From the IMG/VR virus record IMGVR_UViG_3300033068_000287, positions 85,498 to 122,024 of that record: 36,527 nt of DNA. One strand, 5' to 3'. Below, in pieces: positions 17,813-29,918 of the stretch. The DNA is from a virus (Duplodnaviria > Heunggongvirae > Uroviricota > Caudoviricetes). A program made the translations under genes and the position numbers. A model generated the notes under the pieces. The model was given only the letters and a program-made list of their open reading frames with translations. It ran no database searches and was not told where the DNA came from. The number at the start of each line of letters is the position of its first letter. Positions within the stretch are counted from its first letter, which is position 1.

Positions 17813-19162
17813 ATGAGCAATTTTGAAGTTAAAGTCGTTAAAATCGATGCGGTCGAAAATCATCCGAATGCGGATCGTTTATCAATTATTAAAATTGGTG
17901 GGTTTGATTGTATTTCTGGTAAATTGGAAGATGGTAGCCATCGGTATAACACCGGCGATTTAGTTGTTTATATTCCAGAAGCTGCGGTCGTTCCTGAATG
18001 GATTCTGCGCAAGCTAGGATTCTGGGATCAAAATTGTGGCACTCTTTCTGGTTCTCACGGAAATCGCGTTAAAGCCATCAAGCTACGCAAGATCGTTTCT
18101 CAAGGTATTTTGTTTCCTGTTACGAAAAGCATGATTCCAGACTCAACTCTACCACTTTCTACATTTACTGTTCATGCAGAATACACACAAAAAGATATTG
18201 ACGAATTGCGTTTTCATTTTGATAGCGGTAATGCTGGTCTTGAAAATGAAGAATACGAAGCAGCCATTGCTGAAGTTGATGCGTTGGTTCCCGGTAATAT
18301 CAGGGCATCAATGAATGTTGCCGAAGGTGATGATGTTGCAGCATTTCTAGGCATTACAAAATACGAACCGACAGTTCCTGTATCTATGCAAGGTAAAATC
18401 GGCACACTATTCGGTTATACGAAATCATACGATATCGAAAACCTTCAGAAAAACATGAATGCGTTTGAAGAAAACGAACCGGTTGTTATGACAGAAAAAC
18501 TTCATGGTACTTTGTGCCAAGTTGGTTATCTGACAAATCTTCCAGAAGAAAAAGCAAATGATGTTTTCCTTGCTTCAGAAAATCCAAAAATCCATTCGTA
18601 TGTTACGTCTAAAGGATTGGCAAAAAGCGGTCTAATTCAGAAAAATTCTGATGACAACCAAGAAAATATCTATGTCAAAGCATACAAAGATTATTTTGAT
18701 AACGAACAGGTTGTTAATGCAGTTAAATCTCTTATGGAAGCAGAATCTGCATACAATAAAGCATCCATTAACGTTTATGTCTTTGGTGAAGTTTTTGGTA
18801 AAGGTATTCAAGACTTGGGCTATGATACTGAACCAACATTTAATGTTTTTGATGTTTACGTTAGCCTTAATGGTGAAAATAACGGATATTATCTAAATGA
18901 TAAATTCTTGGAACAGTTTTGTACAGAAGCTGGACTAAATCGCGTTCCTGTATTGTATAGAGGTCCATACAGTATTGAGAAAGCGACAGAAGTCCGTGAC
19001 GGAAAAACAACGCTAGGAAACAAATCACATATCCGTGAAGGTATTGTTATTCGTCCTACTATTGAGAAATACAATGTCCGTGGTCTTCCTGATGGTCGTC
19101 TACAATTGAAATTCGTAAGTCCTGATTATCTTCTAAGAAAAGATGGAACAGAATTCAATTAA
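17813..19162 (+). CDS. ATP-dependent RNA ligase (DRB0094/Rnl5-like) with N-terminal OB domain
   Basis: HPNADRL...GDLVVYIPE N-domain; motif I TEKLHGT, GEVFGKGIQ, REGIVIRP, LKFVSPDYL. Confidence 0.9.
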   Translation: MSNFEVKVVKIDAVENHPNADRLSIIKIGGFDCISGKLEDGSHRYNTGDLVVYIPEAAVVPEWILRKLGFWDQNCGTLSGSHGNRVKAIKLRKIVSQGILFPVTKSMIPDSTLPLSTFTVHAEYTQKDIDELRFHFDSGNAGLENEEYEAAIAEVDALVPGNIRASMNVAEGDDVAAFLGITKYEPTVPVSMQGKIGTLFGYTKSYDIENLQKNMNAFEENEPVVMTEKLHGTLCQVGYLTNLPEEKANDVFLASENPKIHSYVTSKGLAKSGLIQKNSDDNQENIYVKAYKDYFDNEQVVNAVKSLMEAESAYNKASINVYVFGEVFGKGIQDLGYDTEPTFNVFDVYVSLNGENNGYYLNDKFLEQFCTEAGLNRVPVLYRGPYSIEKATEVRDGKTTLGNKSHIREGIVIRPTIEKYNVRGLPDGRLQLKFVSPDYLLRKDGTEFN

Positions 19163-21739: not shown

Positions 21740-21865
21740 ATGCAAAAATTGTCAAAAGTTTGGGAATACATGATTCATATGCCTATTCCAACCAATACAC
21801 AGAAAACACAGACACAAACTAAATCAAATACTACACCCAATAATCTTATTGGGCCTAAACTTTGA
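21740..21865 (+). CDS. hypothetical 41-aa protein
   Basis: Fills the gap between flanking ORFs. Confidence 0.35.
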   Translation: MQKLSKVWEYMIHMPIPTNTQKTQTQTKSNTTPNNLIGPKL

Positions 21866-21872
21866 GGCTGTA

Positions 21873-22154
21873 ATGGACAGAAAATTTACAGAAACAAACG
21901 ATGCTCCTGGATATCATATATCTGATATTCCCAAGGGAACGTTTGGTAATGAAAGTAAAATTGTAGAAGAATGTGCTGAATTTATTGATGCTCTAGATCA
22001 AGATTGTAAGATCATGGCATTAGTAGAATTGGCAGATTTGGTTGGTGCTATCGAAGGATATCTCCATGAGAATTTTGAAGGAATAGAACTTCATGATTTA
22101 CAAAAAATGTCAAAAATCACAAAGAGAGCATTTGAAAATGGACATAGAACTTAA
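21873..22154 (+). CDS. MazG-like all-alpha NTP pyrophosphatase-fold protein
   Basis: GAGG RBS before ATG 21873; EECAE (EExxE) and VELADL (ExxD) motifs. Confidence 0.55.
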   Translation: MDRKFTETNDAPGYHISDIPKGTFGNESKIVEECAEFIDALDQDCKIMALVELADLVGAIEGYLHENFEGIELHDLQKMSKITKRAFENGHRT

Positions 22155-22590
22155 TGTAAACAATGCAGAAATGAAGCAACAGCTAATTTCTCTATTATGT
22201 CACACCGACCATCATATTGGACCGGCTAAGATTGATAAAAATACTTATATGTATGATTATTTCTCATTACATTTTGATGTTATGTCTGTAACTTCTCCTG
22301 CTACTCTTGTTATTCGCGGAGGTGAAAAATATGTCGCCGTAGTAACTTCCGTAGTATTTGATATGGAAGATGGAATGGATAAAATGCTACGAACTTTAAT
22401 CAATCAAGTTCCTAACTTAAATACAGTTGTTGGTATTTACGAAGTAATGCCATTAGAAAACAATAAAGTTAAGTTTAGATATTTTGTATGCCCTACAGAA
22501 AGCACATATAAATCTAGAAATGAAGAAAAATTTCAACAGTTAAAAGAAATGACTAAAAATGGAACAGAGCCTTCCGGAGATAAACTATAA
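22138..22590 (+). CDS. hypothetical protein
   Basis: Likely start ATG 22138; lies between the MazG-like and aaRS-like genes. Confidence 0.55.
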   Translation: MDIELNVNNAEMKQQLISLLCHTDHHIGPAKIDKNTYMYDYFSLHFDVMSVTSPATLVIRGGEKYVAVVTSVVFDMEDGMDKMLRTLINQVPNLNTVVGIYEVMPLENNKVKFRYFVCPTESTYKSRNEEKFQQLKEMTKNGTEPSGDKL

Positions 22591-23161
22591 AAATCTATCT
22601 GATGCTTTAGAATTTTATAAAGCATTTGGATATGAATATGTTGAAGTTCCTTGGATTGTTCCTCGGAACGTTACACAAATTACATTGAATACGGATGAAG
22701 TTAATCCTATTGAAATGTATGAAGGTATGTCTGCTGGCGGCTACGGCGGAAAATCAAATGGTGATCTTGTTGGCTCTGCTGAACAAGGATTCTTATATTT
22801 GATGGAACAAAATAAATTAGAACATGGTGATTATTGTGCATTAACGCCATGTTTTAGAAAAGAACAATATGTAACTAACTTACATAGACCATATTTTATG
22901 AAAGTAGAACTTTGTTCTTTTCAAGCTACTAAAACAGATTGTAAACCAAAGTTAAAATCAATTATTGATATCTGCTATAGATATTTCAAATTGACTGGAT
23001 ATACACCAGATAAAGTATCAACACCAGACGGTATTGATTTTATGCTTAATGGTATTGAAATCGGTTCTTATGGTATCAGATCGTTTAAAAATTTTCATTG
23101 GGTCTATGGTACAGGATTAGCTGAACCAAGATTCCAACAAGCAACACAACAGAAAGAATAA
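22559..23161 (+). CDS. stand-alone class II aminoacyl-tRNA-synthetase-like catalytic core
   Basis: Motif1-like GYEYVEVPW, GSAEQ (TxE loop), motif 2 PCFRKE...HRPYFMKVE, GIEIGSYG, motif 3 GTGLAEPR; no anticodon-binding domain (200 aa). Confidence 0.7.
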   Translation: MEQSLPEINYKNLSDALEFYKAFGYEYVEVPWIVPRNVTQITLNTDEVNPIEMYEGMSAGGYGGKSNGDLVGSAEQGFLYLMEQNKLEHGDYCALTPCFRKEQYVTNLHRPYFMKVELCSFQATKTDCKPKLKSIIDICYRYFKLTGYTPDKVSTPDGIDFMLNGIEIGSYGIRSFKNFHWVYGTGLAEPRFQQATQQKE

Positions 23162-24917: not shown

Positions 24918-25024
24918 TGAGACTTTTTAGTCCAATCCCGGCAGGCTCGATTCCTGTCCGTACTCACAATATGGTGCACCATGTTAAGAATATGAAAGGT
25001 TTGGGATTGGACTAAGAAGTTTCA
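24918..25024 (+). ncRNA. structured RNA: 22-bp terminal stem enclosing a T-arm-like hairpin (Y-RNA-like tRNA mimic candidate)
   Basis: 24918-24939 pairs with 25003-25024 (20 Watson-Crick + 2 G-U); internal GGCAGG-CTCGATT-CCTGTC. Confidence 0.65.
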
Positions 25025-25032
25025 CAATACTA

Positions 25033-25106
25033 TGCGCTAGTCGTCTAGGAGCAGGACGCCTCCATTGGGGAGGAAACTCGGGTGCGAGTCCCGACACGGT
25101 GCATCA
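25033..25106 (+). tRNA. non-canonical tRNA-like RNA (Gln-like TTG if read with a 7-nt loop)
   Basis: D stem GTCT/GGAC; anticodon arm CCTCC-ATTGG-GGAGG; T arm TCGGG-TGCGAGT-CCCGA; irregular acceptor; no encoded CCA. Confidence 0.6.
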
Positions 25107-25113
25107 TTTATTT

Positions 25114-25187
25114 TGTGCTAGTAGTGTAATAGAAAGCACGCCTAACTATTAAATTAGGAAGTTTGGTTTAAATCCAACACGGCACAC
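25114..25187 (+). tRNA. non-canonical tRNA-like RNA with 8-nt anticodon loop
   Basis: D stem GTGT/GCAC; CCTAA-CTATTAAA-TTAGG; T arm TTGG-TTTAAAT-CCAA; acceptor TGTGCT/GGCACA; no CCA. Confidence 0.6.
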
Positions 25188-25195
25188 TAAAACTT

Positions 25196-25987: not shown

Positions 25988-26001
25988 TGCCAGTTGGCCT
26001 C

Positions 26002-26032
26002 GGAAGGTAGGGTAATTCCTACCTTCCATTTT
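26002..26032 (+). terminator. intrinsic terminator
   Basis: GGAAGGTAGG-GTAATT-CCTACCTTCC followed by ATTTT. Confidence 0.75.
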
Positions 26033-26062
26033 ATAAAACCTATTTTAGAAATTTTATATATT

Positions 26063-26614
26063 ATGAATATTTTTTATCTAGACACTTCCGCAGAAATTGC
26101 AGCAAGAATGCAACATAACAGACATGTTGTTAAAATGATTGTAGAAACTGCGCAACTATTGTGTACAGCACATAGAGTCATAGATGGTGAATTAAAAACC
26201 GTTACAGTTAACGGTAAAGAAAAATCAAAATGGATTCATCCAGACCTCGAATATCATAATGCTTTATATAGAGCAACACACATTAATCATCCAAGTGCAA
26301 TTTGGGCTAGACAATCTTCAGCGAATTATAATTGGCTGTATAGACATTTTCTTGCACTTATGACAGAATATACTTACAGATATGGAAAGAATCATAAATG
26401 TGAATATTTGATTCCATATCTAGCAAATCATCCAGAAGATATTTCATTGAATATTTTCACGGTTCCTCCACAATGTATGCCTGACGATGTTAAAGACGAA
26501 CACGACACGGTTAAAGCGTATAGAAATTACTATAACAAATATAAGAAATTTGCAAAAAACGGCAGCGAAAATAAATTTACCCCTAGGAATAAACCGGAGT
26601 GGCTAACATGGTAA
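26063..26614 (+). CDS. pyrimidine-dimer DNA glycosylase-family protein (DenV-related Pyr_excise family)
   Basis: Start ATG 26063: MNIFYLD...A....HVVKMI.E.AQLL.TAH; Y.ATH.NHPSAIWAR; PPQCMPD...AYR.YY. Confidence 0.75.
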   Translation: MNIFYLDTSAEIAARMQHNRHVVKMIVETAQLLCTAHRVIDGELKTVTVNGKEKSKWIHPDLEYHNALYRATHINHPSAIWARQSSANYNWLYRHFLALMTEYTYRYGKNHKCEYLIPYLANHPEDISLNIFTVPPQCMPDDVKDEHDTVKAYRNYYNKYKKFAKNGSENKFTPRNKPEWLTW

Positions 26615-28510: not shown

Positions 28511-28723
28511 ATGAATGAAAAAGATTTAGTAAAGAAAATTGCCCATGCCGTAGCGAAAGCCAGATACCAAGCTATCTATGGCTGGACGGACGAACAGGTA
28601 GAAACTTTTTGGAATAATCCAAAATCAAATTTTTTTAATAAAGATGAATATCTGGAAGCTGCTAAAGTAGCACTTGACGTAATTCTGCAATATCAGAAAG
28701 AACAAAATAATGACAATTCATAA
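28511..28723 (+). CDS. hypothetical protein
   Basis: 70 aa; first gene after the promoter. Confidence 0.6.
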   Translation: MNEKDLVKKIAHAVAKARYQAIYGWTDEQVETFWNNPKSNFFNKDEYLEAAKVALDVILQYQKEQNNDNS

Positions 28724-29918
28724 TAGAATGATGAAAGCAACGGACACAGCATTTAAATCTCTGCATAAGTTGTTTAGTGATAATGGCAAATCATTGTGGA
28801 TGGTTGGTGGTGCTGTAAGGGATTTGCAGTCTGGCAATGGTTTTCCTATGGATATTGATTTTTGTACTGATGCTACACCAGACGAAATGAAAGCTATGGT
28901 CAATGATAACTATGGCTGGAAACTGTTCGAAACAGGAATTTCACATGGTACAGTTACATTTATGTCATTGTTGGGATGTTTTGAAATCACAACTTTGCGC
29001 AAGGATGTTGAGTGTAATGGCCGCCATGCGTCTGTTGAATTTACTACATCTTTGAAAGAAGATGCATCCAGACGCGATTTTACATTTAATGCCATGTATA
29101 TGGACATTGATGGTAAAATTTATGACTTTTTTGATGGCCAAACTGATTTGGATAATCAAAAAGTTAAATTTATCGGAAACGCAGAAGATCGTATTAAAGA
29201 AGATGCTTTGCGCATTCTGCGCTATTTCCGCTTTCTGTCTGAATACAATAACTATGATGAAGCAGACTTTGACGCAGTTAAAGCAAATATTAAATTGCTA
29301 GAAGGTGTTTCTGTAGAACGTATTTGGTCGGAAATTTCAAAGGCTGCATGTAAAAATCCAATAAAAATGTCGTCATTTTTTGATTTTATGATTTTGTCTG
29401 GTTCTATGGAAATTCTTGGAATTCCTGTCAGCAAGGACATTAATATTAGCCGTATGAGAGATATCTATTCGACCCGAGGCGAATATCCTGCTATTTTTCC
29501 AGAATTCTTCATGGCAGCAATTTTGCCTGATCCTATCGCAACTTCTAATTTCTGTGATAAGTTTAAAGTATCGAATACTGGCAGAGAAAGAATGATGTGG
29601 TTCAGTAATATGATTGACCGCTATGGTCATAAAGACAGTAAAAACTATTTTGGACCTGATGCAGTAAAAGAGCATATGTATATGGACGGAGATCGTCCTG
29701 AACATTTGCAAGCATTTGCCTCATTTTATGGTGACAGGTTTCTGGAAGAAAGCATTAATCATATTCCTAGACTGAAATTTCCAGTAACAGGTCAAGATTT
29801 GCTGGATAAAGGTTTTACTCCTGGACCGCATATTGGTGAAAAACTGGCTAAAATGAAAAAACGCTGGAAAGTTTCAGATTACACAGCTACGAAAGAACAG
29901 CTAATAAATAGAATTTAA
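28710..29918 (+). CDS. cca: CCA-adding tRNA nucleotidyltransferase (class II)
   Basis: VGGAVRD, DIDF.TDATP, EITTLRKD, DA.RRDFT.NAMY, RI.EDALRILRYFRF, ERIW.E, FPVTG.DL...G..PGP.IG. Confidence 0.92.
   Translation: MTIHNRMMKATDTAFKSLHKLFSDNGKSLWMVGGAVRDLQSGNGFPMDIDFCTDATPDEMKAMVNDNYGWKLFETGISHGTVTFMSLLGCFEITTLRKDVECNGRHASVEFTTSLKEDASRRDFTFNAMYMDIDGKIYDFFDGQTDLDNQKVKFIGNAEDRIKEDALRILRYFRFLSEYNNYDEADFDAVKANIKLLEGVSVERIWSEISKAACKNPIKMSSFFDFMILSGSMEILGIPVSKDINISRMRDIYSTRGEYPAIFPEFFMAAILPDPIATSNFCDKFKVSNTGRERMMWFSNMIDRYGHKDSKNYFGPDAVKEHMYMDGDRPEHLQAFASFYGDRFLEESINHIPRLKFPVTGQDLLDKGFTPGPHIGEKLAKMKKRWKVSDYTATKEQLINRI

Follow-up and report, generated by a model that had tools for sequence, protein, structure and literature searches.

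A minimal seryl-tRNA synthetase-like core and a HisE/MazG-like protein are inherited together in large tRNA-rich phages

Described relatives and layout of the locus

Class II aminoacyl-tRNA synthetase (aaRS) paralogs without a tRNA-binding domain are involved in asparagine synthesis, in the modification of EF-P and in the loading of carrier proteins (PMC9437257), and such paralogs have repeatedly proved to do unexpected chemistry. HisZ, which works with HisG, AsnA and EpmA/GenX all have a class II core devoid of an anticodon-binding domain and a role outside translation; HisZ is non-catalytic, AsnA and EpmA belong to class IIb, and a pyrophosphatase subunit is found in none of them. The amino acid:[carrier protein] ligases (Bll0957/Atu2573; PDB 3mey), of about 300 aa, have a core derived from the methanogen-type SerRS from which the tRNA-binding domain was lost, and the gene for the carrier protein adjoins their own (PMC9437257). 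The gene pair described here codes for a class II core with an obligate pyrophosphatase-like partner, which sets it apart from the characterized paralogs covered by a 2022 review, where no counterpart with a pyrophosphatase partner is found (PMC9437257).

The pair was noticed in a stretch of 36,527 nucleotides (hereafter, the window) from a 122-kb IMG/VR phage contig estimated to be 68% complete. Megablast found no match among phages for 15 kb of the window, indicating that the phage has no close sequenced relative. A preliminary description, made from the DNA sequence, had pointed to an overlapping run of genes with a MazG-like gene two genes upstream of an aaRS-like gene, and three overlapping ORFs in this arrangement are indeed present on the + strand, between 21.8 and 23.2 kb (Table 1). 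PADLOC returned no match for the three ORFs or for the downstream gene, coding for a 311-aa protein, and thus none of the four products is a listed defence protein. The preliminary description also knew of no established function for the family, in agreement with our literature search, in which no study of the pair was found; genome papers repeat the labels 'SerRS' and 'MazG' (e.g. PMC8953757). The pair is widespread in large, tRNA-rich phages, and we found no published work on what it makes.

Table 1. The gene pair, the ORF between its members and two flanking genes in the window
Feature	Position	Strand	Remarks
RNA ligase	17813-19162		one flank of the pair
HisE/MazG-like protein (putative all-alpha nucleotide pyrophosphohydrolase)	21873..22154	+	93 aa; phrog_6408, PHROG E 3.8e-37
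Orphan intervening ORF	22138..22590	+	150 aa from ATG 22138; 165 aa from ATG 22093
Stand-alone class II aaRS catalytic core, SerRS-like	22559..23161	+	200 aa; phrog_4806, PHROG E 2.6e-42
CCA-adding enzyme	28710-29918		other flank of the pair

The SerRS-like core

Motif 2, the SxE loop and motif 3, which had been read from the window protein alone, are invariant or nearly so in an alignment of 40 family members: motif 2 as F99-R100-K-E102 followed by R110 and F113, the loop as S73-A-E75 and motif 3 as G184-T-G-L-A-E-P-R191. Motif 1 is represented in the same alignment by an invariant P31, in a helix-strand element. In all, 24 positions are invariant in the 40 sequences, whose identity to the window protein is only 37-50%; P31, S73, E75, Q76, R100, K115, E117, E167, S170, R174, T185 and R191 are among them, and the invariant set covers the Pro of motif 1, the Arg of motif 2 and that of motif 3, and the acidic and Ser residues of the ATP/metal site. 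As judged from the alignment, none of the class II residues required for the binding of ATP and of an alpha-amino acid is missing from the core, and the conservation of these residues across a diverse family is the pattern expected of an active adenylate-forming enzyme and not of a pseudo-enzyme.

An AlphaFold2 (AF2) model of the core, built from 40 relatives (pLDDT 90, pTM 0.86), shows the antiparallel beta-sheet fold of the class II active site, with a lineage-specific loop (residues 48-64) as its sole weak stretch. When aligned against PDB representatives with VIA-align, residues 1-200 of the model match the catalytic domains of SerRS, the best being 7u2a (Z 20.2, rmsd 2.8 A over 193 residues), followed by five further SerRS catalytic domains at Z of about 18 (Z 18-20 and rmsd 2.6-3.0 A for the SerRS entries overall). 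HisRS/HisZ (Z 15-17.6 for the HisZ chains), ProRS, ThrRS, Bll0957 (Z 15.9), AsnA (Z 12.6) and GenX (Z 12.4) come next; 69 representatives reach a Z of at least 8, and the best 50 of these 69 are class II synthetases or their paralogs. Foldseek gave 445 matches at E <= 0.001, with PylRS and SerRS ranked first (E 1e-8). A profile of the core family detects SerRS chains among the PDB sequences (E 1.5e-6), and hhalign pairs the family with E. coli SerS at a probability of 93.7%. The model thus bears out the view of a minimal class II aaRS-like enzyme lacking tRNA-binding domains, for which structure prediction had been proposed as a check. The likeness to EpmA and AsnA, also put forward in the preliminary description, appears to be a loose one, since the core is closest to SerRS both by fold (Z 20, as against 12-13) and by profile, although 28 of the 40 relatives weakly match Pfam tRNA-synt_2 (D/K/N), as a class IIb (LysRS/AspRS-like) core would.

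The core shares with SerRS (class IIa; 7u2a, 2dq0, 1ser; E. coli SerS) the class II fold over all of its 200 residues and the signatures L-x-x-[ST]-A-E, T-P-C-F-R-x-E, F-x-K-V-E, E-I-x-S and G-[ST]-G-L-A-x-x-R. In the alignment with E. coli SerS, L-V-G-S-A-E of the core corresponds to L-I-P-T-A-E, F-M-K-V-E to F-D-K-V-E, and T-P-C-F-R-x-E occurs in both; by eye, E-I-G-S can be matched to E-I-S-S and G-T-G-L-A-E-P-R to G-S-G-L-A-V-G-R. As for the serine pocket, the [ST]-A-E and K-V-E signatures align, whereas the Thr of the SerRS sequence H-T-L-N-G, before motif 3, is apparently replaced by a conserved Trp, a comparison made by eye only.

Unlike SerRS, the phage protein has no N-terminal coiled-coil tRNA arm: it starts 8-10 residues before motif 1, its model aligns only to about residues 145-470 of the SerRS chains, and the whole of its 200 aa is taken up by the catalytic core, with no tRNA-binding domain, anticodon-binding or other. 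Class II enzymes contact the acceptor stem through the loop of motif 2; here this loop is about 6 residues shorter than its SerRS counterpart, and the stretch from E-I-x-S to motif 3 falls short by about 17 residues. Half the size of SerRS and with an obligate HisE-like partner, the protein is, to our knowledge, the smallest intact SerRS-type core. Some members of the family, including CcrColossus gp133, have in addition an N-terminal helix-hairpin-helix domain resembling the RNA polymerase alpha-CTD, which hints at a nucleic acid or a nucleotide as the ligand.

The window protein falls below every curated SerRS model, and no match to it was found in Pfam or NCBIfam (tRNA-synt_2b and serS included). 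Only seven of the 40 relatives touch Pfam tRNA-synt_2b (G/H/P/S/T) at E <= 0.1, as against 28 with a weak match to tRNA-synt_2 (D/K/N), a preference that weakens the case for serine. In PHROG, phrog_4806 carries the label 'histidyl tRNA synthetase'; as statements of function, both this and the 'seryl tRNA synthetase' label found in databases are almost certainly wrong.

The HisE/MazG-like partner and its linkage to the core

Translation of the partner most likely begins at ATG 21873, which has a GAGG 6 nt upstream; a TTG at 21849 would give a protein of 101 aa, and relatives start even later. Like HisE/MazG proteins (1yvw, 2a7w, 1vmg), the partner is small (about 85 residues) and helical, and has the metal ligands EExxE...ExxD. 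This site, noted beforehand in the window protein, is intact (E32/E33/E36 and E52/D55 in the 93-aa numbering) and 90-100% conserved in the family, and by this alignment the partner retains the metal-binding carboxylates of the all-alpha NTP pyrophosphohydrolases. The AF2 model (pLDDT 90.6) consists of three long helices. Generic helical hairpins dominate its VIA-align matches (top Z 6.8), and the best match with real sequence identity is B. cereus HisE 1yvw (29-32% identity over about 60 residues; rmsd 1.8 A, 62 residues), with a structural Z of 6.2 that lies within the helical background. The partner family profile found nothing meaningful among the PDB sequences. Pfam PRA-PH (PF01503) is matched by 31 of the 40 partner relatives at E <= 0.1 (best 4.6e-5) and MazG by six; the window protein itself stays below the cut-offs of PRA-PH (15.7-15.9 bits, as against 21.3) and of the HisE model TIGR03188 (16.4, as against 42.7), and its assignment to HisE/MazG rests on weak scores (15.9 bits; Z 6.2). 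phrog_6408 is a PHROG family with no assigned function. The partner differs from HisE in apparently lying outside a histidine operon (of the neighbours inspected, none carries an annotation as a his gene such as hisG or hisI), in having an N-terminal G-Y-H...S-K signature of its own, more than 90% conserved, and in being always coupled to the aaRS-like core.

The preliminary description had suggested examining the co-occurrence of the two genes across phage genomes, and the outcome is strongly positive. Among 80 IMG/VR loci, collected by the core alone and then scored for the partner, 79 have the partner less than 2 kb from the core and on the same strand; in the remaining locus, the sequence ends 4 nt upstream of the core. 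The partner lies upstream of the core in about 65 of the loci and immediately downstream in 14, and an adjacency that is kept while the gene order changes argues for functional coupling rather than inherited synteny. At least 12 natural fusions, some of them 265 aa long, with the aaRS part N-terminal and the MazG part C-terminal, were found: seven among the homologues of the core, four among those of the partner and one in an IMG/VR locus (L026). Thus, the two genes are inherited together and have been repeatedly fused.

The family of the core comprises 1451 clusters at 50% identity (E <= 0.001). Searches with tblastn gave 276 phage records for the core and 278 for the partner, and the tallies by genus are almost the same (core/partner: Escherichia, 112/113; Acinetobacter, 61/59; Caulobacter, 13/13; Pectobacterium, 10/10). 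The isolated phages carrying the pair, about 275, include rV5-like and phAPEC8-like phages of E. coli, Acinetobacter phages and phiCbK-like phages of Caulobacter, so that both product and role can be directly tested in tractable phage-host systems. The partner is also present in 18 of the 21 loci with the core in metagenome-assembled genomes (MAGs), which come from Saccharibacteria, Woesebacteria, Nano- and Woesearchaeota, a Magnetococcales bin and others; on an 871-kb bacterial scaffold, the pair is found among housekeeping genes (pth, rplY and a HIT gene), with no obvious prophage. When all ORFs of at least 60 aa within 6 kb of the pair were clustered for 81 loci, no conserved third gene emerged: no other family is present in more than 18 of the 81 loci, the family reaching that number is an ORF that overlaps the aaRS-like gene in antisense, and, of the next largest families (10-13 loci), the majority come from one set of related loci. 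As no third gene is shared across the loci, the pair behaves as a self-contained, mobile unit.

The intervening ORF, counted from ATG 22138, overlaps the stop of the MazG-like gene by 17 nt and the start of the aaRS-like gene by 32 nt. An open frame of 165 codons has a chance expectation of about 5e-6 at 35% G+C, which makes a real gene probable. No family was found for it in Pfam, PHROG, NCBIfam or PADLOC, and tblastn against 50,697 phage records gave no match; there is one weak, partial match in IMG/VR. The 165-aa product shows no likeness to the gene found between the pair in rV5-like phages, to the 155-aa N-terminal extension of the Brevundimonas phage proteins or to the phrog_4784-like third component. 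Inserts between the two genes occur in about a dozen lineages and are mutually unrelated; by sequence comparison, the ORF is a lineage-specific insert and not a conserved part of the module. The phrog_4784-like component is a His-rich domain of about 190 aa (phrog_4784 has no assigned function), added in six of the 80 loci, usually at the N-terminus of the partner and once as a separate gene between the pair. More widely, 32 proteins join the HisE-like subfamily to this domain, and a CYTH triphosphate-tunnel domain occurs as another fusion partner, in keeping with a role in nucleotide processing.

Proposed activity of the pair and alternative readings

We propose, with a probability of roughly 0.55, that the mini SerRS-like core and the HisE/MazG-like protein are the two subunits of a single enzyme, self-contained and horizontally mobile, that aminoacylates a nucleotide-type acceptor. 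The core would activate a small polar amino acid, serine being a first guess, as the aminoacyl-adenylate, and the aminoacyl group would then be passed to a nucleotide-type acceptor and not to a specifically recognized tRNA; candidates are a free adenosine nucleotide, in place of A76, or a generic nucleic-acid 3' end. An acceptor of this type is suggested by the loss of the SerRS tRNA arm together with the shortening of the motif 2 loop. The HisE-like subunit, in turn, may cleave the alpha-beta bond of the triphosphate in the acceptor nucleotide or in its aminoacylated form, and the cleavage would render the step irreversible, much as HisE does on phosphoribosyl-ATP after HisG. We favour a nucleotide or a 3' end because the core is devoid of tRNA-specific elements, because HisE, the closest relative of the partner, has as its substrate an ATP derivative supplied by the enzyme before it and because the subfamily of the partner also pairs with other enzyme-like domains. 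We infer that, in a complex, amino-acid activation is coupled to the pyrophosphohydrolysis of a nucleoside-triphosphate-type substrate; the product is probably an aminoacylated nucleotide or 3' end.

A narrower and more tentative version, unlikely in our estimate, would make the pair a dedicated synthase of a free aminoacyl-nucleotide, e.g. a 2'/3'-O-seryl adenosine nucleotide mimicking a charged CCA end, with the synthetase core taking a nucleotide as the acceptor and the HisE-like pyrophosphatase trimming the product. If so, the compound would represent a new class of virus-made metabolite, by means of which large phages, and a few ultra-small microbes, could target the translation machinery or a host defence that senses nucleotides.

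In decreasing order of likelihood, the alternatives to aminoacylation of a nucleotide-type acceptor are the charging of tRNA, the synthesis of Ap4N, the aminoacylation of a protein and a role in regulation only. A minimal tRNA-charging enzyme, reading only the acceptor end of a phage or host tRNA, with the HisE-like protein as an accessory that prepares or proofreads the 3' end or removes a blocking pyrophosphate, for example, is a doubtful reading with several observations in its favour. All of the 46 carrier contigs of at least 100 kb hold tRNA genes, 36 of them 20 or more, to a maximum of 67; large genome size, however, confounds this tRNA-richness. In 18 of the 46 loci (39%), tRNA genes lie no more than about 6 kb from the pair, as compared with 17 of 80 equally sized windows taken at random from these genomes (21%), a weak signal (odds ratio 2.4; one-sided Fisher p = 0.026) from loci that are not phylogenetically independent. 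With carriers that all bear tRNA genes, most of them many, and a pair somewhat enriched near such genes, a tRNA acceptor is possible. The RNA ligase and CCA-adding enzyme genes on either side of the pair in the window (Table 1), a nucleotidyltransferase gene 1 kb upstream of the pair in an rV5-like phage and the fusion of one HisE-like relative to a GGQ-less RF-1-like domain point the same way. However, the core has neither a tRNA-binding arm nor an anticodon-binding domain, its motif 2 loop is shortened and both proteins are acidic (median pI 5.2 and 5.1). The CCA-adding enzyme, for its part, was rejected as a general neighbour: it is present in 21 of 31 carrier genomes, usually 50-130 kb from the pair, and absent from the other 10.

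Synthesis of Ap4A/Ap4N or of another nucleotide alarmone, in which a second nucleotide would be adenylylated from the aminoacyl-adenylate and the HisE-like protein would degrade or tune the product, we regard as quite improbable. Class II synthetases, LysRS among them, are known to make such compounds in a side reaction, LysU being the cited example (PMC9437257), the superfamily of the partner cleaves nucleoside polyphosphates, and universal metabolites would suffice for a self-contained module; but an obligate and in some cases fused complex that both makes and hydrolyses a compound would seem futile, and the invariance of the residues in the amino-acid-binding loop would be surprising in a pure nucleotidyl transferase. 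Ligation of an amino acid to a host or phage protein, in the manner of EpmA on EF-P or of the amino acid:[carrier protein] ligases, is how known class II paralogs without a tRNA domain work (PMC9437257), and Bll0957 is a good structural match. We nevertheless consider it very unlikely: GenX/EpmA is far behind SerRS in the structural ranking, neither a carrier protein nor a phosphopantetheinyl transferase nor any other gene is conserved beside the pair in the 81 loci, and the obligate nucleotide-pyrophosphatase partner would be left unexplained. Least likely of all is a non-catalytic pseudo-synthetase of the HisZ/SLIMP type, sensing an amino acid or a nucleotide and regulating the HisE-like enzyme; the strong structural matches to HisZ chains and the PHROG label would fit, but HisZ is reported to have no adenylation activity (PMC9437257), whereas in the core family R100, R191, E167/S170 and the S-A-E loop do not vary among 40 diverse sequences, as expected of an active adenylating site.

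On the contig from which the window comes, there are at least 15 good tRNA genes, 50-77 kb from the pair. The preliminary description had also considered that the core might charge two tRNA-like RNAs, at 25033 and 25114, downstream of the pair. This idea did not hold up as a conserved feature: the pair has no conserved neighbour, and these RNAs, both below threshold, are tied to it only by proximity in one genome. Neither is called by ARAGORN at default settings, and the second (25115-25186) scores 28.4 bits with the Rfam tRNA model, for which the gathering score is 29; with relaxed settings, ARAGORN reports this element as a tRNA with an 8-nt anticodon loop.

Domains fused to, or encoded with, the two-gene module

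A His-rich domain of about 190 residues (phrog_4784), for which no Pfam match was found, is present in P0255, P0276, P0302 and 29 other proteins, and at loci L015, L017, L018, L040, L059 and L062, six loci that all carry the aaRS-like core. The domain, whose consensus includes W-F-G-L-G-F and H-F-W-H...H-D-H-R-Y, either forms the N-terminal part of a fusion with the HisE-like partner or is the product of a gene lying between those of the pair; in some lineages it may serve the module as a third, metal-dependent enzyme. Other members of the HisE-like partner family (P0341, P0309, P0348 and their relatives) are fusions that carry an RF-1-like domain C-terminal to the HisE-like one; in this RF-1-like domain, the H-x-P-T-G-L strand known from release-factor domain 3 is retained, but the GGQ loop is apparently missing.

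The two-gene module was also found on an 871 kb TARA scaffold assigned to a Magnetococcales bin (locus L086), where its neighbours are pth, the gene for ribosomal protein L25 and a HIT-family gene; this setting is apparently chromosomal and non-prophage.

tRNA-like elements and RNA-related genes

Three degenerate tRNA-like elements are clustered downstream of the pair, at 24925-25190 (see the table). Element 2, read by relaxed ARAGORN as a tRNA-Pro(UGG) with a 55-nt intron, is enclosed by a long-range helix (~24973 to 25102). Element 3, to which ARAGORN (-ps80) assigns a four-base anticodon, 'atta', scores 28.4 bits against the Rfam tRNA model, below the gathering score of 29. An acceptor stem whose base contains two mismatches is common to both elements.

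Features of the window around the tRNA-like elements
Feature	Position	Match
RNA ligase	17813-19162	phrog_968, E 3.8e-52
Element 1, solitary T-arm-like hairpin	~24939-24960	
Element 2, tRNA-like, 5-nt 'anticodon' loop	25033-25105	
Element 3, tRNA-like, 8-nt anticodon loop	25115-25187	
Outer-membrane beta-barrel protein, 180 aa	25445-25987	PF13505, E 2.3e-17; OmpA_membrane
206-aa protein	25994-26614	phrog_624, E 7.4e-53
GroES-like co-chaperonin, 92 aa	27543-27821	phrog_3188, E 4e-9
tRNA nucleotidyltransferase/CCA-adding enzyme	28710-29918	phrog_2244, E 1.6e-52; PF01743

The genes for the RNA ligase and the CCA-adding enzyme stand on either side of the region, in what looks like a local RNA/tRNA-repair neighbourhood; other phages do not conserve it around the pair.

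Other genes of the window

The 206-aa protein weakly matches the Pfam family Pyr_excise (pyrimidine-dimer DNA glycosylase), at 19.5 bits, below the cut-off of 23. The outer-membrane protein has a full-length beta-barrel domain and a signal-peptide-like N-terminus; as a phage-encoded OMP, it suggests a Gram-negative host and, perhaps, a role in superinfection exclusion.
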